64,000 nt of DNA, from positions 1-64,000 of IMG/VR virus record IMGVR_UViG_3300033388_002987; one strand, given 5' to 3'. This DNA is from a virus. The notes under the pieces were generated by a model, which was not told the origin of the DNA, did no database searches, and saw nothing but the letters and a program-made list of their open reading frames with translations. This document shows positions 3,790 to 59,687 of the stretch, piece by piece. The translations under genes were made by a program, and so were the position numbers. The first letter of the stretch is position 1; every line of letters starts with the position of its first letter.

Positions 3790-3991
3790 CCTTTGGTGCG
3801 GTTCCGAAGAACCCTATTATAATAGCTCCAAATGTGATTGAAGAAGTACTAAAGATACTATTAGCAGAAGAAGGATCTACTCCAATAAGCAGTAATCCTA
3901 GTGATAGTAGTGGTATAAGCAGTAACGACCCAAACGCAAGATACACCATTCTGTACCTAATTGCTTGTTTCTCATCTAACGATTTTCCCAT
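3776..3991 (-). CDS. holin-like protein (2 TM)
   Basis: 71 aa with two hydrophobic segments, upstream of the spanin-like pair. Confidence 0.45.
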   Translation of the reverse strand: MGKSLDEKQAIRYRMVYLAFGSLLLIPLLSLGLLLIGVDPSSANSIFSTSSITFGAIIIGFFGTAPKDDNV

Positions 3992-4013
3992 ATTAATTCC
4001 TTTTTATTTTGGA

Positions 4014-4042
4014 AGTCTACTATTACTTAACTTAATTGTCAA
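4014..4042 (-). promoter_or_regulatory. sigma70-type promoter
   Basis: TTGACA-N17-TAGACT upstream of 3991. Confidence 0.65.
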
Positions 4043-5778
4043 GTGTAGCTTGAATAAGCGGAGTCACCATCATCATCTGAATACGCTGAATCTCCCCATA
4101 TAGAACTCTTACCTCTATTGGCACTATTGTGCTCTGCTGAGGTAAATCCACCAACTGCAACCATCGGGTATAAGATCTCCATCATACCAAGTTGACTAAC
4201 AACATCACAGAAATCATCATGTCCACCAAAGTTCTCCCAAGTAGTATACTTAAGTTGTTTCCTAGCCTCAATCATATCAGGTGTGCTCTCAAGCTCTGTT
4301 GGGAAGTGTATTTTATGATTCTGAAACTGTGGTAACATCATTCTAAAACGTGAATGCTTATTACCACCAGTGGCTTTACTAAGAATACCTTCAGCACCGT
4401 ACTTAGCACCCTTCTGTCTAGCAAACGAGAACCACTCGGTTCTCTTAACCATCATTTCTTTAAGCGCAAAGATATGTGCTTTCTGTTGACCATCTACTTC
4501 AATACCTACCTCAACACTTTTACCATGACTGGACCAGAAATTAACCATTCTGAATAACTCATCGTACTGCTCTCCAATACCCTGACGCTTCACACATAAG
4601 TCTACTAAGTAGAAGTCCTTATTACTATTAACAGCCCATACAGCTAATGCAGAGAAGTCTGACTTAGCTTCGGATGTAGTAGTAAAGTCTGTGGTTATAT
4701 AGATATTGTAAGATTGCATCTCTTTGATAAGGTCTTTTCTACTATACCACTCAATCATATCATCTGATATCATTCTATCCTCGTCAGAGGATATACGGAG
4801 CATACGTTCCTGGTTGAACTCTCTAGTAGCATTAGATGCCACAGCACTTTCGTACTGCTCAATAACAGCATGATAAGGATGCATAGCTGTCCACGCACCT
4901 TTATACTCACTCTCAGGCATGCCTTCATATATCTTCTCACATATAGGTATAGCAACAGGAGTGTACGCACCTTGTGTTAACATCTCAATAACAGGATCTA
5001 AAAGGTGGAATGGTGTAGCAACTGAAAATATCTTACCTTTACCACCACCACGCAATGCATTAATAGCATCTGCGTTAATAGTATTACGTAAACTGCTCAT
5101 AATAGTATCTGAGTATGCAGTATCTGAATTAAGAATAACATCATCAAATATAATATGGTCAGGTCTCTCTGCACCTATATTAGAACGAACCCCACGAATA
5201 CCTCCACCGATACCAATGTATCTACAAAGGAACACTCTATTCTTAACTTTACCAGTACCTTTACGGATAAACTCAGACTCAGTCTCAGTAAACCTCATGC
5301 TCTCAAAGTAATTTTGACAGAATACACTATCTTCACATAAAGACTGAACAGCCTTTGCCATAACTCTACCACCACCTTGTTGTGATGCTGCCACTAATAA
5401 GTGAAACTCAGACTTAACACCGTCTGGAGTAATTCCCTTAATAGCACAGTATACTGGATAAAATGCGGTAACAACCGTTGACTTAGCAATACCCCTTGAT
5501 GCAACAATGCATATACGCTTGACATTAATAGTAATAGTATCTCGCACCTCCTTAGAATAAGGGTAATTATCCCTAGTAATATTTCCGAACATTAAGTCCA
5601 CTAACCAATAATGAAATAATGGTGTATCAAATTCAAAGTCTTCACCTTGAACCATTCGCATAATAGCAAAGAACTCAAGTGAGTCCTCTGAAGGTATGTA
5701 ACCGTTAAATGATAAATCAATAGAATCTAGCGCAGCATCTAAGTCAAACTTCTTAAGATTCTTCTTTATATCACTCAT
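4039..5778 (-). CDS. terL: terminase large subunit (N4 gp68-like)
   Basis: Walker A-like SRGIAKST, Walker B IIFDD, RNase H-like nuclease motifs TTDFTT and HDDFCD. Confidence 0.92.
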   Translation of the reverse strand: MSDIKKNLKKFDLDAALDSIDLSFNGYIPSEDSLEFFAIMRMVQGEDFEFDTPLFHYWLVDLMFGNITRDNYPYSKEVRDTITINVKRICIVASRGIAKSTVVTAFYPVYCAIKGITPDGVKSEFHLLVAASQQGGGRVMAKAVQSLCEDSVFCQNYFESMRFTETESEFIRKGTGKVKNRVFLCRYIGIGGGIRGVRSNIGAERPDHIIFDDVILNSDTAYSDTIMSSLRNTINADAINALRGGGKGKIFSVATPFHLLDPVIEMLTQGAYTPVAIPICEKIYEGMPESEYKGAWTAMHPYHAVIEQYESAVASNATREFNQERMLRISSDEDRMISDDMIEWYSRKDLIKEMQSYNIYITTDFTTTSEAKSDFSALAVWAVNSNKDFYLVDLCVKRQGIGEQYDELFRMVNFWSSHGKSVEVGIEVDGQQKAHIFALKEMMVKRTEWFSFARQKGAKYGAEGILSKATGGNKHSRFRMMLPQFQNHKIHFPTELESTPDMIEARKQLKYTTWENFGGHDDFCDVVSQLGMMEILYPMVAVGGFTSAEHNSANRGKSSIWGDSAYSDDDGDSAYSSYT

Positions 5779-6818: not shown

Positions 6819-6892
6819 TGGTACGGATATTAAGAATCGAACTTAAGCTACTTGCTCCCAAAGCAAGCGTGATACCACTTCACTATATCCAT
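6819..6892 (-). tRNA. tRNA-Pro(TGG)
   Basis: Cloverleaf folded by hand: anticodon arm CTTGC-TT TGG GA-GCAAG, T loop TTCGATT, encoded CCA. Confidence 0.9.
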
Positions 6893-6966
6893 TGGATGCT
6901 CTGCTAGGATTCGAACCTAGGTTATCACAGTCAAAGTGTGAGGTCCTGCCGCTAGACGACAGAGCA
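6893..6966 (-). tRNA. tRNA-Gln(TTG)
   Basis: Acceptor TGCTCTG/CAGAGCA, anticodon loop CT TTG AC, T loop TTCGAAT, CCA. Confidence 0.95.
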
Positions 6967-6975
6967 GTATTTAAA

Positions 6976-7052
6976 TGGTGCCCAGAGTAGGAATTGAACC
7001 TACGACCCCTAGCTTTTCAGGCTAATGCTCTTACCGACTGAGCTATCTGGAC
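6976..7052 (-). tRNA. tRNA-Phe(GAA)
   Basis: Acceptor GTCCAGA/TCTGGGC, anticodon loop CT GAA AA, T loop TTCAATT, CCA. Confidence 0.95.
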
Positions 7053-7128
7053 TGGCTTCGTATCCTGGGCTCGAACCAGGGACATGCGCATTAACAGTAC
7101 GCCGCTCTACCAACTGAGCTAATACGAA
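7053..7128 (-). tRNA. tRNA-Asn(GTT)
   Basis: Acceptor TTCGTAT/ATACGAA, anticodon loop CT GTT AA, T loop TTCGAGC, CCA. Confidence 0.95.
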
Positions 7129-11671: not shown

Positions 11672-12145
11672 ATGTACTACCAACTAATACAACAAGACAT
11701 TATAGTAGCCACTGATAAGAAATGGCTTAAACGCCATGAGTACCATTCAATGGCAATAAAACTATACGGCGTACTAGCTAAACAACAGGAACCTCTTGAC
11801 TTATCAGATGAAACAATGACGAACACTTGTGTAACATCTAAAGTAACTTACCAAGAAGCCAAGCGTCAGCTTGTCTACTCTGGACTACTAGAGATACACA
11901 AGATAAACTCTACTACAATAGTATTCGTACTAGGGGATAAAGCAATACGCTCTTACGCTAGACGTATACTAGCTAAAGAAGACCAACGCCTTACCCGTAA
12001 AACAATAGAAAGCCTAGAGCTCCCTGGTTCAACTGAGCCTTTAGAAGAGGATGATACTATGTCAGTCTATACCAACGAGGACTTACAAGCCTTATACGAT
12101 AAAGTACAAAGGCCTAAGCCCTTAGACTTACTAGACATTCTATAG
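11672..12145 (+). CDS. hypothetical protein, possible winged helix
   Basis: 157 aa; TYQEAKRQLVYSGLLEI resembles a wHTH recognition helix and wing. Confidence 0.55.
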   Translation: MYYQLIQQDIIVATDKKWLKRHEYHSMAIKLYGVLAKQQEPLDLSDETMTNTCVTSKVTYQEAKRQLVYSGLLEIHKINSTTIVFVLGDKAIRSYARRILAKEDQRLTRKTIESLELPGSTEPLEEDDTMSVYTNEDLQALYDKVQRPKPLDLLDIL

Positions 12146-12342
12146 CCAAGTATCGCCTTGGGAACTCTAGACAAACTTCGTTTGTCTTTAGCAATACAAC
12201 ACCATGTGTTATATAGTAAGATAGAAGACCATAGTAAAAGAGGCAAATACAGCCTTAAATCTACCAGTCTCACGGGGTTTAACCGTGTACAACTAAACTA
12301 ACCAAAAGGCACGGGAAACCGTGTACTATTAAAGGAGATACA

Positions 12343-12663
12343 ATGACAATACTAGGATTTCACCTATGTAATACAGAGGATGTGTACGACATGTCTTTCC
12401 AAACATACCGTGGTAAACAAGTACGATACGAAGTAGACACTCACCGTGTCTGTACAGAATGTGGAAAGATGGAGAAGTTTGTCTACGGATATGACTGTTG
12501 GTGGGAAGAGCTTAGCTCAATACGAGCAAAAGTACTTATAGTAGACTTAATAGTAATGAATGGTAAATACTATTTAAAAGACTACAATAGTTCTGTAGAT
12601 AAATCTACTATAAAACCAAGAAGTCCGGCTTACGCTCCTATACTACAACAACCTCAGCACTAA
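12343..12663 (+). CDS. hypothetical protein (CxxC)
   Basis: AAGGAG RBS. Confidence 0.6.
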   Translation: MTILGFHLCNTEDVYDMSFQTYRGKQVRYEVDTHRVCTECGKMEKFVYGYDCWWEELSSIRAKVLIVDLIVMNGKYYLKDYNSSVDKSTIKPRSPAYAPILQQPQH

Positions 12664-12847
12664 GGAACTGTATGAAAACTAAGGTACACCAAGTCTTCCA
12701 CATGGACAAATACGGTAAACACCACATCAGCTACTTCTACAGCACAGTCACAGAAGCTAAACGCTTCAGAAGTAAATGTCAAGCCTCTGGTATGACTCAT
12801 GTAATGGTTAAGAGCCGTTACTAAAAAATTGACATAAAGGAAATCCT

Positions 12848-13069
12848 ATGCAACAACTCCACGACCTACCTTACTTCAAGCCTCACGGCTCTAGTAAGAT
12901 ACACAGGAAACAATACCATAACGGTACAGGCATCCTAATAATAGACAACAACGGCCTCTACGAGTCCGTAGTACACACTCCCACAAAACCAGATATTATT
13001 ACTAGTAAACAAACACTTGAGCAAGTTAACACCTTGCTAGAGCAACTTCATAAGGATAATCATGAGTAA
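12848..13069 (+). CDS. hypothetical protein
   Basis: AAGGA RBS; overlaps next ORF. Confidence 0.6.
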   Translation: MQQLHDLPYFKPHGSSKIHRKQYHNGTGILIIDNNGLYESVVHTPTKPDIITSKQTLEQVNTLLEQLHKDNHE

Positions 13070-36079: not shown

Positions 36080-36643
36080 ATGACAAAAATAGACCTAGAA
36101 TTAGAGAAACACTTTAAAACAGTAGGCAGTAGACCTCAACGTAAAAACGAAGAAACACTTACTTCATTTGATCGCGACATATTTTGGTATGACAAAGACA
36201 CTAAACATCGCCAAACACCTTCTACCACCAAAGTCACTTACGAACATCATCGTAAAGCAATAGAAACAGCCGTTAACTTTATGCGTAAAGATACACAACA
36301 TACTATTGCTATGTGTATATTAACACATCGCCACTTCGAAGACTATCGAAACTCAGTCTTCTCAGGAGAAGGCAACTTCACAGCAGACTATTCTTTTATT
36401 GTGAAGAAAGTGCATATGTTATTCAACCCTACAACAAGTAGAATAACTACTTCTAGTATCAGTACTAAACTTAAAGAGTTTACAACACCTACCTTAGTAC
36501 AAGTAAACCACGTAGTCGGCGAAGTAACTCCAGTAACAGTACCTGATACTGGAGAAACACTTAATGAATGGGCAATCAAGTTTAACGAGAATGCCAACGA
36601 GACAACTACATATCACGTAGCTGGCCTTAAAATAGGTGCCTAA
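36080..36643 (+). CDS. hypothetical protein
   Basis: AAGGAG RBS. Confidence 0.65.
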   Translation: MTKIDLELEKHFKTVGSRPQRKNEETLTSFDRDIFWYDKDTKHRQTPSTTKVTYEHHRKAIETAVNFMRKDTQHTIAMCILTHRHFEDYRNSVFSGEGNFTADYSFIVKKVHMLFNPTTSRITTSSISTKLKEFTTPTLVQVNHVVGEVTPVTVPDTGETLNEWAIKFNENANETTTYHVAGLKIGA

Positions 36644-41532: not shown

Positions 41533-42354
41533 ATGATACCTAAATGGCTCTGGAATAAAACAATAGCAGTATACGATCTCGAAACAGACCGTATACCAAC
41601 GACCTTAATATATATGATGGGTGTATCAGTAGTAACTATCAACGCCAGAGGCGTTGCTACCTCAACTCCTAGTAAAGTCTTCACACACACCTGGACCTCT
41701 TACTCCAACGGAAGCCTTATGCAAGGCATCTCCTTAGTAAACTCCTGTGATTTCAGAGCTGGTCACAACTCCGTCGGATTTGATGACTACGAAGTTCGAA
41801 GGTATCTTAACATCCTACTTACTAAGCCAGCTCTCGACACTATGATACTCTCCAAGATAATCTTTTCCAAAGATGATCTCTTTGCTATGGATCCTCAACT
41901 AAAGATTGATAAAGACTTATGGGGAGGCTACTCGCTCAAGGCCTTTGGTCAACGACTAGGCGACTTTAAAATCTCCTTCGATAACTTCAACAAGATGAAC
42001 GAGGAAATGGCAGTATATTGTAATCAAGATGTAAATCTCACCAGTAAACTCCTACTTTTCCTTCTAAACAAAGAGAACTTCCCACTAGAACCTGTCGTAA
42101 CAATTGAACATCAGGCTGCTGCTATAATAGCTGAACAAACTGCCTTTGGTTTCTATATTGATATAGACTTAACTAGGAAGCTTAATACTAAGCTCCTTAA
42201 AGAAAAACTAGAACTATCTACTGAGCTCTCTAAGATCTTCTCTCCTAAGTTCTTAAAAGATGGTCCAGTTAAATCATACAAGAAAACAAGCAAGGTTAAG
42301 AAGTACCTTCCTAACACTCACTACATACCACTAATAGGAACTAATTATGACTAG
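41533..42354 (+). CDS. polA: DNA polymerase A (T7-like), N-terminal half: 3'-5' exonuclease and start of thumb
   Basis: ExoI YDLETD, ExoII GHNSVGFD, ExoIII YCNQDV; EH.AA.II..Q...GF..D thumb start; stops early. Confidence 0.9.
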   Translation: MIPKWLWNKTIAVYDLETDRIPTTLIYMMGVSVVTINARGVATSTPSKVFTHTWTSYSNGSLMQGISLVNSCDFRAGHNSVGFDDYEVRRYLNILLTKPALDTMILSKIIFSKDDLFAMDPQLKIDKDLWGGYSLKAFGQRLGDFKISFDNFNKMNEEMAVYCNQDVNLTSKLLLFLLNKENFPLEPVVTIEHQAAAIIAEQTAFGFYIDIDLTRKLNTKLLKEKLELSTELSKIFSPKFLKDGPVKSYKKTSKVKKYLPNTHYIPLIGTNYD

Positions 42355-42514: not shown

Positions 42515-42976
42515 ATGAACCTCTCAGACGATTCCATAGATCAAATCTATGAGTCCCTAGATTTATCCTGCTACCACTTCACTTGGTCCATTATAAACAA
42601 AGGCTCCAAAGGAGACTTTGTACTAGAATACATCCACCAAGAACTACTTCAAGACAGCTCTTTAACACGCTGCCTTGCATTAGTATTATGGGATAGTATG
42701 GACTGGAATGATGCTGTAACAGCTTATAATGATGAAGATTATCTAGTATTAACTACAGAAGAAGTAGACGATGAAATGCTAGAATCTGCCCAGAGTTATT
42801 TATATGAAGTAGTACTTCCAGAAATCCCGGAGTACCTACACTATTACTTCAATGAAGATACCTATATTAAAGACTACATTAATGATACAGTTCCCGGTGA
42901 AGTTATTGCAGACCATGATGGTGCGGAGCACTCTGTAGATGTAGATGGAACAACTTATTATATTTATAGAAAATAA
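42515..42976 (+). CDS. highly acidic putative DNA-mimic/antirestriction protein
   Basis: About 34 D/E vs about 6 K/R by manual count; Tyr-rich C-terminus YFNEDTYIKDY..YYIYRK, ArdA-like. Confidence 0.5.
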   Translation: MNLSDDSIDQIYESLDLSCYHFTWSIINKGSKGDFVLEYIHQELLQDSSLTRCLALVLWDSMDWNDAVTAYNDEDYLVLTTEEVDDEMLESAQSYLYEVVLPEIPEYLHYYFNEDTYIKDYINDTVPGEVIADHDGAEHSVDVDGTTYYIYRK

Positions 42977-44465
42977 TACGCTCGTCTCTATAAGACGTCG
43001 GGTTTGTGAAGCGAGGCTAACAAAACCAGTAAATGAAGTTTGCTGTACAAATAAGTCTTGAGATAGATAGTGACTGCCTGCTAAAGTACACGGCTATAAA
43101 ATGCAATCAACATCTACTAGTAGTGATGGAATCAGTGACACCTTAAGTGGTCTGCGGATTCGCGGTAAACTTTATTCTAGATAAAGGGTACTTGACCGCT
43201 ACTTCGGTAGTAACATATATGGTGAGTACAGTTACATGAGACATTTTGAGTCTAAGGAACTTGACATCCCAGGGTCGAAGTCCCTGGGCTACTAAAAGTC
43301 TAAACGAGACTGTAAATTGTACCGAACCCTTTAAGTAGGGCTAAATTGCAGGTTGCGGCCAACAGTCCGTACTAATAAATAGAATGATGCAGAAATGTAG
43401 AAATAGAGACTTACCTGTTCCACCACCTTATCTAAGGGCAACACCGTGAAGCCGGGGAACGACCAGTACGATTTATCGCTGACCCTAGACGGTCTTCAGC
43501 TGAAGAAAGCGTCCAGCTTCCACTCCATTTGCCTTCATTGGAGTATAACATTAAGACACCGGGATTTATACACCTTGGTTAATACAAACGTATGATATGA
43601 GCAGTAGGCTGCCTGTGTAAGTCAGGCCTGGGACACCAAAAGTCACGTAGGACCACTAGACTATAAAATCCATGGTGCTTGCTGGGATGCAAGGTGTAAA
43701 CCGTCTGACCGCTGTAGAGGACGTTAAATAGGCAGATACTAGTGAATCTAAGCAATCATTAGTAGCTAGTAACGTCAATGACAGAATAAGCTACGGCTTA
43801 GGAATCTTCGTTATGAAGGTGCCCACTACCTTAAGTGTGGGAGCTATGTTGTACCCATTCGGAGGGAACCTGACGCAGGCATAGTGAGTTCGAAACCGTC
43901 TAGTTGTGACTACTAATTAAAGTACAGACAATCCCTGTGAGCATACATAGTGGTGCAGGCCACAGCTTATTCCCTGGTTTGGGGTACAGTCCGTTCAAAT
44001 CGAGACTGGGTAAGTCCTGTTAATGTATGTTCTTAGGGGTCGTCGCAGCATGCAAGCGAATGACCGCTAATCATAAATAAACATGTACCATTATTTGTCA
44101 GTTGCGTAAATTCGAAAGAAACTGTCTGGTCAAACATATAGCTGAGGGATGTAACCTTTCAAAGTATATCTCAGCACAAACAAATAAGCTTATGGAGCTA
44201 ATAGACTAGGTAGGGAATCCTGCACTATTGGTTCTAGTAAGTTTATCGGGTCAAGCAAATGCCCCTCACAGCCCACGCCAGTATGATTGGATTCAAAGGG
44301 AGTAGTAAAATAATATGTGCCAAACAACGTGTATGAGAGTAAATACTACCGTTATTGTGATGGGTGTGCCTAGCCAGGACCTGTAGACTACCAATTCACA
44401 ATTAAAACAAAGAATAATAACGTTATGGTGCCCAGCAAACCTGGGTACTAGTAACGACTATTAAA
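42977..44465 (+). ncRNA. candidate very large structured non-coding RNA (or RNA cluster)
   Basis: No ORF of 60 aa or more in any frame over ~1.5 kb; visibly GC-richer; dense hairpins with UUCG/GAAA and T-loop-like loops. Confidence 0.6.
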
Positions 44466-44473
44466 GGAATTAA

Positions 44474-44851
44474 ATGAACTTCAAAATAGGTGATTCAGTA
44501 CGTATTAAAACATTAGCAAACCTAACAGAACAGTACGGAGTGTATGGCGACGGTGATATAAGGTGCTCCCCTTACTTTAAACCATCTCACAAAATATACT
44601 GTGGAAGATCTGGTACTATATCATCAATAACTGATAATGGGATTGCACTTACAGAAGCAGCTTTTGATAATAACGTATTCTCCTCGAAAGTATTAGAACG
44701 AATAGTTGAACTTACACTAGTTAAAGGGCATATACTTATATGTGATTTTGATGCATACTCAATAAACATTAATATAAATAAAGGGTACACTATACGTGAA
44801 TTTCATGATAACAAATGTATAATGGTGTATTCCCCTATAAATACTTTATAA
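44474..44851 (+). CDS. KOW/SH3-like domain protein (paralogous to N-terminus of 31106)
   Basis: MNFKIGDSVRIK vs MSFKIGDKVRVK. Confidence 0.6.
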   Translation: MNFKIGDSVRIKTLANLTEQYGVYGDGDIRCSPYFKPSHKIYCGRSGTISSITDNGIALTEAAFDNNVFSSKVLERIVELTLVKGHILICDFDAYSINININKGYTIREFHDNKCIMVYSPINTL

Positions 44852-51598: not shown

Positions 51599-52579
51599 AT
51601 GACAGGTTTACAAGAATTAATTAATAAGATAAAAGCTGAGGATCACTCAGCGTACTTAGCACTGCTAAATAAGATAAATGGTGAGAAAATGGACAGGTAC
51701 GCCATTGGTAAATTATTTGCAAGTGCTACATTCACAAAAATAACTAATAATCAGTTACTACTACTACGCTCTATGAGTTTTAAAGGTGGTGATACTATCT
51801 GGCTTAGCACGTATAACCGTACACTTTCAAGCTTTGAAAATAGGTTTCAGAATACGCGTGGAGACTACCAGTTGAAATATGGTATTGATTCTCTACCAAA
51901 AGTTGATACTAAATTTATAACTACCTACCACAGAACTCAATGGCGTAAAGCTAACCCGTCTACTCGTAAGAACGGTCCTGCTAAAGGTACTCAATTTACA
52001 TTTAAAATGGATATGTTCTCACTAACCATCTTTAAAAATAGTATAAAGAACGAGTTCCTCCGCACCGAGGGTAAGAACTTTATAATGAAAGTCAATAAGG
52101 CTTTCAGTGAGTCAGAAGGTAATGATTCCCATACTAAGATACGTAATAAATTTTATGCACTGATACTTGATAATACTCCAGTACATACTAAAGCTATGAT
52201 AAATGAATTAAGTCCAACTGCTTTAAAAACTAATGGTACTTACTACATACCTGATGCTGATGAAGCAATAATAGTAGGATTCCGTTGGGGAGGTGATAAC
52301 GAAGTTAGCTACGCTACATCCTATAGCATGGACACATACTCAACTGACTTACCACTAGTAACACACAACATCGGATCAGAAGATGAACGTCACAATAATA
52401 GGTTACTATCAGCCAGCTCTATGTTACTAACAGCACACGCCTCGACAGATTGTGAAGCTTATAAGTCTGCAGCTACACGTATGGTAAAACACTTACCAAG
52501 AACTATAGTCACAGCTGCTTTAGCAAAAACACAAGCCGTAGCGACACTACGCTCAATCTTAAAGGAATCAAATGAATAA
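51599..52579 (+). CDS. hypothetical protein, 326 aa
   Basis: AAGGA RBS. Confidence 0.7.
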   Translation: MTGLQELINKIKAEDHSAYLALLNKINGEKMDRYAIGKLFASATFTKITNNQLLLLRSMSFKGGDTIWLSTYNRTLSSFENRFQNTRGDYQLKYGIDSLPKVDTKFITTYHRTQWRKANPSTRKNGPAKGTQFTFKMDMFSLTIFKNSIKNEFLRTEGKNFIMKVNKAFSESEGNDSHTKIRNKFYALILDNTPVHTKAMINELSPTALKTNGTYYIPDADEAIIVGFRWGGDNEVSYATSYSMDTYSTDLPLVTHNIGSEDERHNNRLLSASSMLLTAHASTDCEAYKSAATRMVKHLPRTIVTAALAKTQAVATLRSILKESNE

Positions 52580-54853
52580 TACAATCACAACAATACTCTC
52601 TACAAACATTAAAGGGCAATTAGCCGGAGCAGACATAGGTGGAGGTATCTGTATAGCTGGGTCACCAGGTATCGGTAAAACTCAAACTATGTACAAGATA
52701 GCTAAAGACTTAAACATGGAGATTGTGCAAGTATCAATCCCAGAAGTATCCACTGAAAACCTTTCGGGTTAACAAACAATTGAACATTACACTTAAAACC
52801 TACCACGATGAGAATATAAAAATGATAATGGTAGTCTAAAGTAATAATGTTTAATTTGTTACAGCCCCTCTACACAGTAATGTGTATAGCAAATCCCTTT
52901 AATTGCTGGGAACTCTTGTAAGTTTTAATACTACAATAACCGTGAAAACAGGTTATGAATGTTTAACAAATTAAAAATAGAGACAATCAGCAGCCAAGCT
53001 CCGTATAGGAGAAGGTTCAACGACTAGTGCATTGTGCACGTACACCTAAGTAGGTGGAAATGGGGGACATCTTTAAACTAACTTTAAGAAATTTCTCGGT
53101 ATACTTACTTATCTAATTTAAGGAAGTACAATGGGAAATAAAGAAATTTTCAAACCAGTCAACTCTAAATACGGTACTCGTTACGAAGTGTCAAATCAAG
53201 GAAGACTGAGAATAACAACTAAGTGTGGAACAAAGCTCCGAACAGGTAGCTTACACCCTCAAATGCATACTACATATGTAAAAGCATCATTATCTAATAA
53301 TGGTATAAACTACACAGTACATATGCACAGACTAGTTGCCGAGGCATTCATACCGAATCCTGACAATAAACCATTCGTAAATCATAAAGATAAGGATGGT
53401 ACTAATAATAATGTATCTAATCTAGAGTGGACAACTCCCTCAGAGAATATGCAACATTCCGCTGATAATCTAGCCCTTAATAGTAAAGCTAAAAGCACAA
53501 AGAAACGTATAACTACGGTAACTCTTGACAGCTTTGAAGATTACTTAACATATATAGGCAAAGACATCGGAGGACGTACTATTATTGGTGTACAGTATAA
53601 GAAACTAACAATAGGCAATAAGCCTGTATTTAAGTGGTTTGGTGTTTATACTTGTAACAATTGTCAAGACGAAATAAGTAGCCCTTGGAATCAAACAATG
53701 AGAAGATCACTAGAAGGACGTAAGCAATTTTGCTTACAATGCTCTAGAAAGTTAAAACCTAAAGATGAAGATATAGTCTAGCCTACACAGAGATGTGTAG
53801 CTGCAGGTAATGCTGCGGACACAGCCTAACGAGCTGTGTTGAATATAAGCGATTCCAGACTTCCTTGACGCTCAACATATGGATGCTTACTCAGTAACTG
53901 GTACAACTGACTCACAAGCTACTAAATGGTCTGTACCTCAAATTATTGAAACAGTAAACCGCTTAGCTGCTACACCCGGCAAAGCCGGTTGTATCTTATT
54001 CATAGATGACTTGCACCGTGTAAACATGGCAGTAGCTCCCTACTTATACGGTCTCCTTGGAGAACGTAAACTAGGCTCTTATAGACTTGACGGAAAAGTG
54101 GCTATCATGGGCGCAATGAACGACTCTGACGAAGCAGGCTTCTCAGGAGTAGACAGCCCTATTAAAGATAGAATTGGTATTTTACCAGTTCCATTCGACT
54201 TTGAATACTGGTTTGATAACTTTGGTAAACACCTACACTTCTATGTAAGTTCATTCTTAAAAACTCATTCTAGCTATGTACAAGAAGATGAATCAACTAT
54301 GATTGAGCAATTTGCTACACCGCGTTCGTGGTCACACCTTGCAAATGAGTTTGAACTATACGACTTGGATTTCATCCAAGCACATACTACCTTACTTGCA
54401 AAACAAAAGGTATCTATTGCAGCTGCAAATGAACTTCAAAAACACATCGCATACGTTGAGGCAATTGACTTCACAGCTAAAATCAAAGCTAAGCAACCTA
54501 TCAATATAGCTGGACTTAAACCTATTGACCAGATCTTGTATGCATACATCATTAACTATGTTACTGATATAGAAGATGCAAAATACGTTATGAGTCTTAT
54601 TGATGGTAATATTGATTCAGCTAACTTCATTGGCTTCATAATAGGAGAGCTTTACAACAAGTTCATCGCTAAAGAAGGTGGCAAGCATATCAACGACGGC
54701 CTTACAATTATCTTAGAAAAATTGCTTAAATCAGATTACAACCCAGAATCTTATAATAAACCTATGAGTAAGGCTGTAAAAGAAACTTATGACAAGTTAT
54801 CATTCGCTGAACACGATAAGTTGTTCGCTGTAGCGTCAGAGTTTATACATTAA
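52572..54853 (+). CDS. AAA+ ATPase (N4 gp24-like), spliced: exon 1 52572-52769, exon 2 53852-54853
   Basis: Walker A GSPGIGKT in exon 1; splicing restores ENLSG-IPDFL; Walker B LFIDD and ATPRSW in exon 2. Confidence 0.9.
52770..53851 (+). mobile_element. group I intron (IA2-like)
   Basis: Exon ends in U paired to G in P1 (GGGU/GCCC); P AATTGCTGGGAA, Q AATCAGCAGC, R GTTCAACGACTAG, S AAGATATAGTC; terminal G at 53851; in-frame ligation. Confidence 0.93.
53131..53781 (+). CDS. intron-encoded NUMOD4/HNH homing endonuclease
   Basis: HRLVAEAFIPNP..VNHKD..NNNVSNLEW; located between R and S. Confidence 0.9.
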   Translation: MGNKEIFKPVNSKYGTRYEVSNQGRLRITTKCGTKLRTGSLHPQMHTTYVKASLSNNGINYTVHMHRLVAEAFIPNPDNKPFVNHKDKDGTNNNVSNLEWTTPSENMQHSADNLALNSKAKSTKKRITTVTLDSFEDYLTYIGKDIGGRTIIGVQYKKLTIGNKPVFKWFGVYTCNNCQDEISSPWNQTMRRSLEGRKQFCLQCSRKLKPKDEDIV

Positions 54854-58336: not shown

Positions 58337-59687
58337 GATACCATACGGACGCTACCTGAAATCAGGTGAGTACAGACCTCCAGGTAAGAAATCACTAAAG
58401 TGGTTCACAACCCCTCACAGAACTATTCACGTCACCCGTGAGGGTGACTACCAACAAGTAAAATACGAAGCCTTCAACCCTGGCTCACGCCATAACATCC
58501 GTCAATGGATGGAAGAGGACTTCGGCTATACATTCCCTTACTACACTCCCAAAGGTAACCCTAAAGTAGATGTAGATTCCCTAGAGAACATGCAACATCC
58601 TTCAGGTAAGCTCCTTAGACGTTACCTGAAGGTAACGAAAGACCAATCTCAAGTGGGAGGAGCCGACGGTTCACTAGTTAAAAACTACAATGAAACTCAG
58701 CGTACTGTAAAGTCAAGGACTGACACTAATGGAACGGTAACAGGCAGGTTCACTAGTAGCTCAATTAACTTAGCACAGATACCTGCACAACAAGAGTTCC
58801 GAGAACTTTTCAGGGCACCTCAAGGCTGGTCCTTCTTAGGAACAGACTTTAGTGGACAAGAGAACGTCAACCTAGCAGAAATGCTCTACCCATACGACGA
58901 TGGACGCCTAGCGGACATCATCGCCTCAGGTAACAAGGACGATGGTACAGACCTTCACTCCCTAAACGCTAAAGCCTGTGGCATCTCCCGTGGAGACGCT
59001 AAACCACTTTGGTTTGGATTCCTATACGGATCCTCTCCAACCTTAACAGGCTACACGTTACTAAAGCATGGCTTCTTTGCTGACTACACTCCTAAAGAGT
59101 TTACTGCTATGGAGAAGAAACTTAAACGTAGAGTAATCTCGCTAGACACTGGTGAATTCTACCCAATCAAGAAAGACGCACTAGTACCATTCAATAAACA
59201 GCTTATTATACAAGCGCTCTTTGGTGCTAAAGTACAAGCAGACCTTATTGCATCAACACATGGACTTGCAAGCCTCATTAAGAACTTAACTATGACAGCT
59301 AAGGCAAATGGGTATGTAACTATGTTTGGCGGCCGCAGGGTACCTATACGTCACGCTCACGCTACACTTAACTCACAACTACAAGGTATGGGTGCTGAAG
59401 CAATGAAGCACTACCTAGTATTCTATCACGAGGAAGCTAAGCGCCAAGGTTTACACCATGGCCAACACTTCAAACAAGAAGCTTGTATTTACGATGAGGT
59501 AGACTTAATAGTACGTGATGATAAACGCTTTGAAATAGCTGATATCCTCCAAGGTACTTACGAAAAGGTCTCCACACACTTAGGTATGAAATGTACTTAT
59601 ACAGGCGAGGTCCTCATAGGAGGTCACTCTAAAGACAAGCATGGCCCTAACGGCCTTGCTGATAACTCGTGGCAAGGATGTCACTAA
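58314..59687 (+). CDS. polA: DNA polymerase A (T7-like), C-terminal half: thumb, palm, fingers
   Basis: FNPGSRH, TNGTVTGR.TSS..NLAQIP, motif A DFSGQE, motif B R..AK...FGFLYG, motif C YDE. Confidence 0.93.
   Translation: MNKLAPYKIPYGRYLKSGEYRPPGKKSLKWFTTPHRTIHVTREGDYQQVKYEAFNPGSRHNIRQWMEEDFGYTFPYYTPKGNPKVDVDSLENMQHPSGKLLRRYLKVTKDQSQVGGADGSLVKNYNETQRTVKSRTDTNGTVTGRFTSSSINLAQIPAQQEFRELFRAPQGWSFLGTDFSGQENVNLAEMLYPYDDGRLADIIASGNKDDGTDLHSLNAKACGISRGDAKPLWFGFLYGSSPTLTGYTLLKHGFFADYTPKEFTAMEKKLKRRVISLDTGEFYPIKKDALVPFNKQLIIQALFGAKVQADLIASTHGLASLIKNLTMTAKANGYVTMFGGRRVPIRHAHATLNSQLQGMGAEAMKHYLVFYHEEAKRQGLHHGQHFKQEACIYDEVDLIVRDDKRFEIADILQGTYEKVSTHLGMKCTYTGEVLIGGHSKDKHGPNGLADNSWQGCH

Follow-up and report, generated by a model that had tools for sequence, protein, structure and literature searches.

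A gap of about 1.5 kb without genes in a phage genome raises the question of what the phage keeps there: one very large RNA, several small ones, or DNA that is falling into decay. The gap studied here lies in a window covering positions 1 to 64,000 of an IMG/VR phage genome, which is complete at 117,954 bp, has direct terminal repeats and has a GC content of 37.6%. A preliminary description of the window had called the gap hairpin-dense and proposed that it encodes either a very large RNA or an RNA cluster.

The island and its setting

The gap and its immediate surroundings, all on the plus strand, are as follows.

41533-42354, plus strand: stand-alone PolA 3'-5' exonuclease gene, upstream of the island and followed by two small ORFs
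42977..44473, plus strand: GC-richer island free of genes, flanked by a 153-aa ORF (42515-42976) and a 125-aa ORFan (44474-44851)
Downstream of the island, plus strand, in this order: the 125-aa ORFan, an NMNAT-like gene, NAMPT, an HNH endonuclease gene and an RNA ligase gene

The absence of any ORF of 60 aa or more, as first described, was confirmed on both strands of 42977-44473, where the longest ORF has 58 aa, and no longer gap of this kind occurs in the entire 117,954-bp genome. The higher GC content noted for the region was likewise borne out (0.43 vs 0.376 genome-wide), and G exceeds C on the plus strand. Each of the six frames of the island holds 20-48 stops and recoding any one stop opens a stretch of at most 116 codons, thus the island cannot be read as a recoded gene. 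A decayed gene, which the preliminary description had named as a way to be wrong, was also ruled out, tblastn of 420 ORFs from relatives having recovered zero remnants of protein genes. Searches of the island for direct or tandem repeats, iterons and CRISPR-like or ToxI-like arrays found none, and a scan of it for sigma-70 promoters and terminators gave chance-level matches only. Together with the comparison presented below, we take the gap to be a real, conserved non-coding locus.

The anti-defence genes reported as neighbours are indeed present, in the form of the NMNAT-like and NAMPT genes downstream of the island. The ORFs flanking the island are unrelated ORFans and separate genes; as bait in IMG/VR the two small flanking ORFs retrieved no relatives, and a search of 5.8 billion proteins found nothing related to the downstream 125-aa ORF, which has its own ribosome-binding site. 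The family A DNA polymerase of this phage is split into the exonuclease gene at 41533-42354 and a polymerase gene at 58440-59573, 16 kb apart, and the separate exonuclease gene is kept in at least 70 metagenomic relatives. The idea that the island is an intron inside this split polymerase was rejected, since the polymerase domain lies 16 kb off and the two halves are therefore not exons around the island.

Known RNA families gave no match either. The preliminary description, working from the letters alone, could not match the region to GOLLD, ROOL, tmRNA, RNase P or introns, and the Rfam covariance models bear this out: between 42800 and 44600 they gave zero matches, whether the cut-off was the gathering score or E<=10, whereas outside the island the same search detected the four tRNAs of the window and a group I intron. 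The GOLLD and ROOL models matched neither the island in the window (E<=10) nor the loci of eight relatives, and the group I and group II intron models found nothing in the island at E<=10, in a scan that catches the group I intron at 52847-53135. The latter match (plus strand, 50.2 bits, just over the gathering score) lies between the ORFs 51599-52579 and 53131-53781, and the same match occurs in relative L026 at 12654-12984 (57.6 bits), followed by an HNH gene. Comparison of the island with T5 rnaX by nhmmer and blastn gave nothing, and relatives matched it in generic T-arm sequence only; blastn at distant sensitivity against GenBank phages found nothing resembling the island, and a literature search found no paper on its motifs. 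At default thresholds ARAGORN called no tRNA and no tmRNA in the island. A tmRNA call at 80% thresholds was dismissed as noise because 48/200 shuffles (24%) also yield one, as do 13 other places in the genome, and no conserved tag reading frame was found in the island.

Visible hairpins and conserved modules

The hairpins named in the preliminary description, and a 9-bp complement joining 43784 and 43964, are present in the sequence but are no commoner than expected by chance. Perfect hairpins in the island number 14 vs 12.5 expected for 5-bp stems, 4 vs 3.2 for 6-bp stems and 1 vs 0.8 for 7-bp stems, thus the hairpin density first perceived matches dinucleotide shuffles and is not a measurable property of this sequence. 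The cited complement is one of three perfect 9-bp long-range complements in the island, where such shuffles predict 5.0, and it is absent from the relatives, among which full-length homologues are few. Minimum free energy z-scores in 200-nt windows of the island average about -0.8, no better than in the flanking coding sequence. A large gene-free gap with visible hairpins is by itself not evidence for a giant RNA, and since hairpin counts, 9-bp complements and folding energies are all at chance or ordinary, we find evidence of RNA structure only in the comparison with relatives.

Using NAMPT and then the exonuclease protein as bait, we retrieved about a dozen independent metagenomic phage contigs, which stem from hydrothermal or sediment samples. 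Nearly all of them carry a gene-free island with GC above that of their own genome, in the same orientation and close to the exonuclease gene, although the position of the island relative to that gene varies; the exonuclease nearest to that of this phage (75% identity) belongs to L045. An all-vs-all comparison of the islands gave 116 shared blocks, 110 in the same strand and 6 in opposite strands, of 20-125 nt and 74-100% identity, roughly collinear but differing in combination, hence mosaic. As the proteins encoded beside the islands are just 48-75% identical between relatives, the blocks appear to be under a constraint of their own. Stretches of the island in which no relative was detected lie at about 42977-43110, 43295-43490 and 44080-44390.

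Standard tRNA genes are frequent in the islands of relatives, six in L032, three or four in L045 and one each in L004, L028, L030, L036 and L039, all on the same strand as the shared blocks. The L039 tRNA (2289-2361) has the anticodon UUA, of ochre-suppressor type; together with a weak call with CUA (amber type) in the window, it may make suppressor-like tRNAs of interest in these phages. In L005, the Rfam tmRNA model matches 84 nt (3965-4048) end to end with its middle deleted, at 26.2 bits and below the gathering score, and the stretch is probably an acceptor/T-arm-only tRNA-like RNA. In L020, a Logan contig (SRR7968125), only the last 47 residues of RtcB remain (12066-12206), 81% identical to the intact RtcB of L024 and lying directly after a 1.9-kb RNA island, which appears to have replaced most of the RtcB gene; this remnant is a hint that islands move or recombine.

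The conserved blocks and tRNA-like folds of this phage, from 5' to 3', are listed here.

43118..43294, plus strand: unit U1, 177 nt, with closing stem TAGTAG (43118-43123) / CTACTA (43289-43294)
43141-43223, plus strand: weak tRNA-like call inside U1, anticodon cta (amber type), at ARAGORN 90% thresholds only
43519..43598, plus strand: module A, a predicted H-type pseudoknot found in nine lineages
43607..43670, plus strand: module B, found in six lineages
43814..43850, plus strand: module Z, CCCAC (43822-43826) - UACCUUAAGU - GUGGG (43837-43841), with conserved flanks
43921..44013, plus strand: leader block (43921-43943, ..GACAATCCCTGTGAGCA) and degenerate tRNA-like cloverleaf (43944-44013)
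44016..44079, plus strand: module C, hairpin GGUCGU...AUGACC with variable loop, then GCUAAUCAUAAA
44395..44468, plus strand: 3' block, with 8-bp hairpin GUGCCCAG-CAAAC-CUGGGUAC (44428-44448), running up to the ribosome-binding site of the following gene

The strongest case is module A, in which the loop of stem S1 (43522-43526 with 43540-43544) pairs with downstream sequence to form stem S2 (43530-43535 with 43553-43558; in this phage one pair is a C-A mismatch), followed in the 3' part by a second hairpin and the conserved AATACAAAC. Across the nine lineages S2 takes the forms UGUCUU/AAGACA, UGUCGU/ACGACA, CAUCUU/AAGAUG, GCUCA/UGAGC, GUUCA/UGAAC and UGCC/GGCA. All six pairs of S2 change on both sides, and the observed score is reached by 0/500 shuffles; 89.9% of cells are paired, whereas sliding the partner gives no more than 42%. 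The predicted pseudoknot is thus well supported by compensatory changes. A pattern search of IMG/VR for module A returned one already known relative and nothing more.

Module B consists of hairpin B1 (GCCTG-TGTAAGT-CAGGC, 43611-43627) and hairpin B2 (AGTC...GACT, 43641-43662), with a CCUGGGA linker and a UAUAAAAU tail as its conserved parts. B1 is 92.6% paired and two of its pairs change on both sides, a covariation drawn from few sequences; the B2 stem, compared by eye, reads AGTC/GACT, GGTC/GACC or TGTC/GACA across relatives.

Module Z is a 5-bp hairpin with a conserved loop, present as a single copy in this genome. Its pairing holds in 11/11 sequences (100%) and includes two compensatory pairs, both in L045, so that the covariation comes from a single lineage and few sequences. 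In L026 and L033, Z lies 8-11 nt before tRNA-like calls made at relaxed thresholds, and in two unrelated jumbo-phage contigs a Z 19-mer occurs 4x and 2x, a few bases before the GGAGA-N5-ATG of protein genes. Since it precedes both tRNA-like calls and jumbo-phage ribosome-binding sites, Z seems to behave as a mark of unit starts, that is a leader, processing or promoter-linked element, and not as the domain of a large fold; its inverted repeat could also be an operator or promoter element at the DNA level. The jumbo contigs, IMGVR_UViG_3300045988_134186 (247 kb) and _135244 (174 kb), contain the loci L063-L066 and L069. An upstream unit of ~80 nt that closes with the Z hairpin, GGAGA and ATG is repeated in them, preceding at least four genes in one contig and two in the other; this unit looks like a shared promoter/leader cassette. 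Among 185,579 prokaryote genomes the Z motif gave 17 scattered matches in unrelated taxa, about the chance level, and no clue to the host.

In unit U1, a T-arm-like 7-bp hairpin, CCCAGGG-TCGAAGT-CCCTGGG (43268-43288), adjoins the 6-bp closing stem, and the modelled shape is a tRNA-like top on a long body. The minimum free energy fold has the same shape in L023, where the body is ~70 nt shorter and the counterpart of the T-arm-like hairpin is CCAAGGG/CCCTTGG, with one C-G to A-U swap. The two ends of U1 are themselves blocks conserved with L023, at 100% identity over 19 nt and 90% over 31 nt.

The cloverleaf at 43944-44013 has the anticodon ggt and a T arm with an extra base, GTCCG-TTCAAAT-CG(A)GAC; it is called by ARAGORN at 90% thresholds only and finds no match with the Rfam tRNA model at E<=10. 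The leader block before it (43921-43943) is common to L030 and L004. At these 90% thresholds, intronless plus-strand calls in the island number two (43141-43223 and 43944-44013), vs 0/200 shuffles, and the rest of the genome outside real tRNAs has just one further sub-threshold intronless call. We regard both island calls as tRNA-derived or tRNA-like and not as tRNAs of the standard kind. A sub-threshold intronless ARAGORN call at 36444-36517 on the minus strand, likewise made at 90% thresholds, resembles tRNA-Tyr(gta) and lies outside both the island and the tRNA cluster; the four good tRNAs of this phage are at 6819-7128, outside the island.

A 20-mer of module C (44058-44077) is 100% identical in L004, where the stem is kept and the loop differs in length. 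The 3' block is 94% identical to L026 over 53 nt, and in L026 it is an internal part of the island and does not precede a gene; as no U-tract follows its hairpin, it is unlike an intrinsic terminator.

One RNA or many

The co-occurrence of modules was scored with family profiles across 12 lineages. A, B and Z are found together, in that order, in four of the 12 (this phage, L028, L030 and L036); a fifth lineage has A and B, and the remaining seven have one module each (A in L004, L020 and L032; Z in L026, L033 and L045; B in L005). A and B lie 86-826 nt apart, separated in L028 by a tRNA-like call, and B and Z lie 79-209 nt apart; in the island of L032, module A stands between tRNA-Ser and tRNA-Met. 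The mosaic module content and the variable A-B spacing with its interposed call suggest an array of small genes that are gained and lost separately, in the way that tRNA clusters behave. We therefore consider the island to be probably a co-oriented array of small RNAs, the counterpart of the tRNA-gene cluster of relatives. As for the two options first proposed, the cluster agrees with the tRNAs of relatives, with short, strand-specific and mosaic blocks and with compensatory pairing, whereas the giant RNA fits poorly with modules that most relatives do not have together, with the A-B spacing and with a cited long-range helix at chance level. Homologues and covariation had been named as the means of deciding; they yielded compensatory changes within modules A, B1 and Z, but the helix 43784/43964 was absent from the relatives.

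Transcription of the island, its processing into separate RNAs and their function are what we infer from this arrangement. Transcription would proceed rightward through the island together with its replication and nucleotide-metabolism neighbours, and enzymes with which the host processes tRNAs (RNase P, RNase Z/E) would cut the transcript into several short folded RNAs. The proposed products are the 177-nt U1 with its tRNA-like top, a pseudoknot RNA of ~150 nt (A+B), the leader hairpin Z, a worn-out tRNA and two hairpin units (C and the 3' block). This phage would have retained the non-tRNA modules, while ordinary tRNAs would have been lost from its island or have decayed there. A likely role would be in the arms race over tRNAs and translation, for example as decoys or substitutes for host tRNAs hit by defence nucleases; alternatively, the modules may serve as processing and stability signals.

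Such a role is suggested by the genes around the islands of relatives, which include RNA-repair genes (RtcB, RNA ligase, a CCA-adding-type enzyme, RlaP and metallophosphatases) and anti-defence genes (Apyc1, NAD salvage), and which make the island RNAs candidate participants in the struggle over the cleavage of host tRNAs. Both RtcB and the CCA-adding enzyme are missing from this phage, thus the link to RNA repair is weaker for this genome.

A single large structured RNA seems unlikely to us. Its domains, separated by variable insertions, would be the modules A, B, Z and C and the tRNA-like fold, over about 43490-44080 or all 1.5 kb, and its models would be T5 RNAX or GOLLD, in which tRNA-like parts can be included or lie adjacent. 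The shared A-B-Z order in four lineages would also fit a larger RNA, as would the fairly narrow B-to-Z distance, the excess of G over C on the plus strand and the precedent of T5, in which a stable RNA of 719 nt lies beside a tRNA. However, seven lineages hold one module only, among them L004 and L020, whose islands are fully covered by the contig, and the A-to-B distance varies tenfold, with a tRNA-like call in between in L028; moreover, neither the Rfam models of GOLLD and ROOL nor T5 RNAX show a specific similarity, the proposed long-range helix is at chance and the folding energy is ordinary. In its most definite form, one RNA of about 600 nt or more in which A, B, Z and C are joined with the tRNA-like fold, so that the molecule contains a tRNA look-alike, the proposal is in our view improbable; if true, it would place beside T5 RNAX, GOLLD and ROOL a comparable new class of large RNA, from vent-dwelling phages, and relatives with a single module would be reduced forms.

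It is likewise rather doubtful that the island is mostly dead DNA, a decaying tRNA cluster whose blocks are DNA-level signals (promoters, operators, recombination or homing sites) or merely slow to decay. Parts of it may simply be decaying, since no tRNA passes standard thresholds and folding energies are ordinary. The same reading would account for tRNA-like folds that are all degenerate, for the large share of the island with no detectable relative, for an inverted repeat (Z) that precedes genes in jumbo phages, and for the missing RtcB and CCA-adding enzyme. Against it, S2 of module A changes on both strands at 6/6 pairs in a crossing arrangement, which a DNA-binding site does not need, and the blocks reach 90-100% identity beside proteins of 48-75%; further, 1.5 kb of junk is seldom kept in a dense phage genome, and zero remnants of protein genes were found.

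That the gap is an unrecognised intron, mobile element or replication origin is very improbable. In its favour, a group I intron and homing-endonuclease genes occur elsewhere in this genome, the island shifts against the exonuclease gene among relatives, and that of L020 abuts a truncated RtcB. Against it, no intron model matches at E<=10 in a scan that detects the 52847-53135 intron; the ORFs on either side are genes in their own right, the one downstream having a ribosome-binding site; the two parts of the polymerase, separated by 16 kb, do not form exons around the gap; and the island has neither repeats nor iterons.

Relation to known phage RNAs

Under the preferred reading, an array of small RNAs, the closest described arrangement appears to be the tRNA region of phage T5. 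In the T5 record (GenBank NC_005859), the tRNA genes are accompanied by eight stable RNAs annotated "with unknown functions" (I, III, IV, 1, 2, 2H, 3 and X), three of them "tRNA-like", with RNAX reaching 719 nt. The region extends over multiple kilobases on one strand and combines tRNA genes with non-tRNA stable RNAs, with homing-endonuclease genes nearby. The islands of the relatives similarly mix tRNAs, tRNA-like folds and other conserved folded blocks, but share no sequence similarity with T5 beyond the generic T arm, and the island of this phage has no standard tRNA.

Unit U1 invites comparison with tmRNA, in which an acceptor and T arm also sit on a long body: its closing stem adjoins the T-arm-like hairpin, and a long body replaces the D and anticodon arms. 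Unlike tmRNA, U1 is not called by ARAGORN or Rfam at usable thresholds. GOLLD and ROOL are phage-borne and non-coding and are often found beside tRNA genes, yet they have one fixed multi-domain architecture, whereas the modules of the island come and go independently. The core domains of a giant RNA should co-occur in one order, and A, B and Z do so in 4/12 lineages. Small stable RNAs of the T4 and T5 type, on the other hand, are expected in or beside a tRNA cluster on the same strand and with conserved secondary structure; the islands of relatives hold 1-6 tRNAs, and conserved structure is found in the pseudoknot, Z, B1 and the T-arm-like hairpin of U1.

The tRNA cluster of T4, of ~1.6 kb and with eight working tRNAs, offers the second parallel. 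It includes two stable RNAs whose function is unexplained, species 1 and 2 (rnaC and rnaD), which are co-transcribed with the tRNAs and released by tRNA-processing enzymes, in a phage that also carries RNA-repair genes. Unlike the T4 cluster, the island of this phage retains only tRNA relics. What would be new at this locus, on the present comparison of sequences, are RNA motifs absent from Rfam (the pseudoknot A, B, Z and C), above all the covariation-backed module A. Phage tRNA clusters have long been known to contain extra stable RNAs such as T4 species 1 and 2, which to our knowledge are unexplained to date, and the locus described here adds new examples to them.
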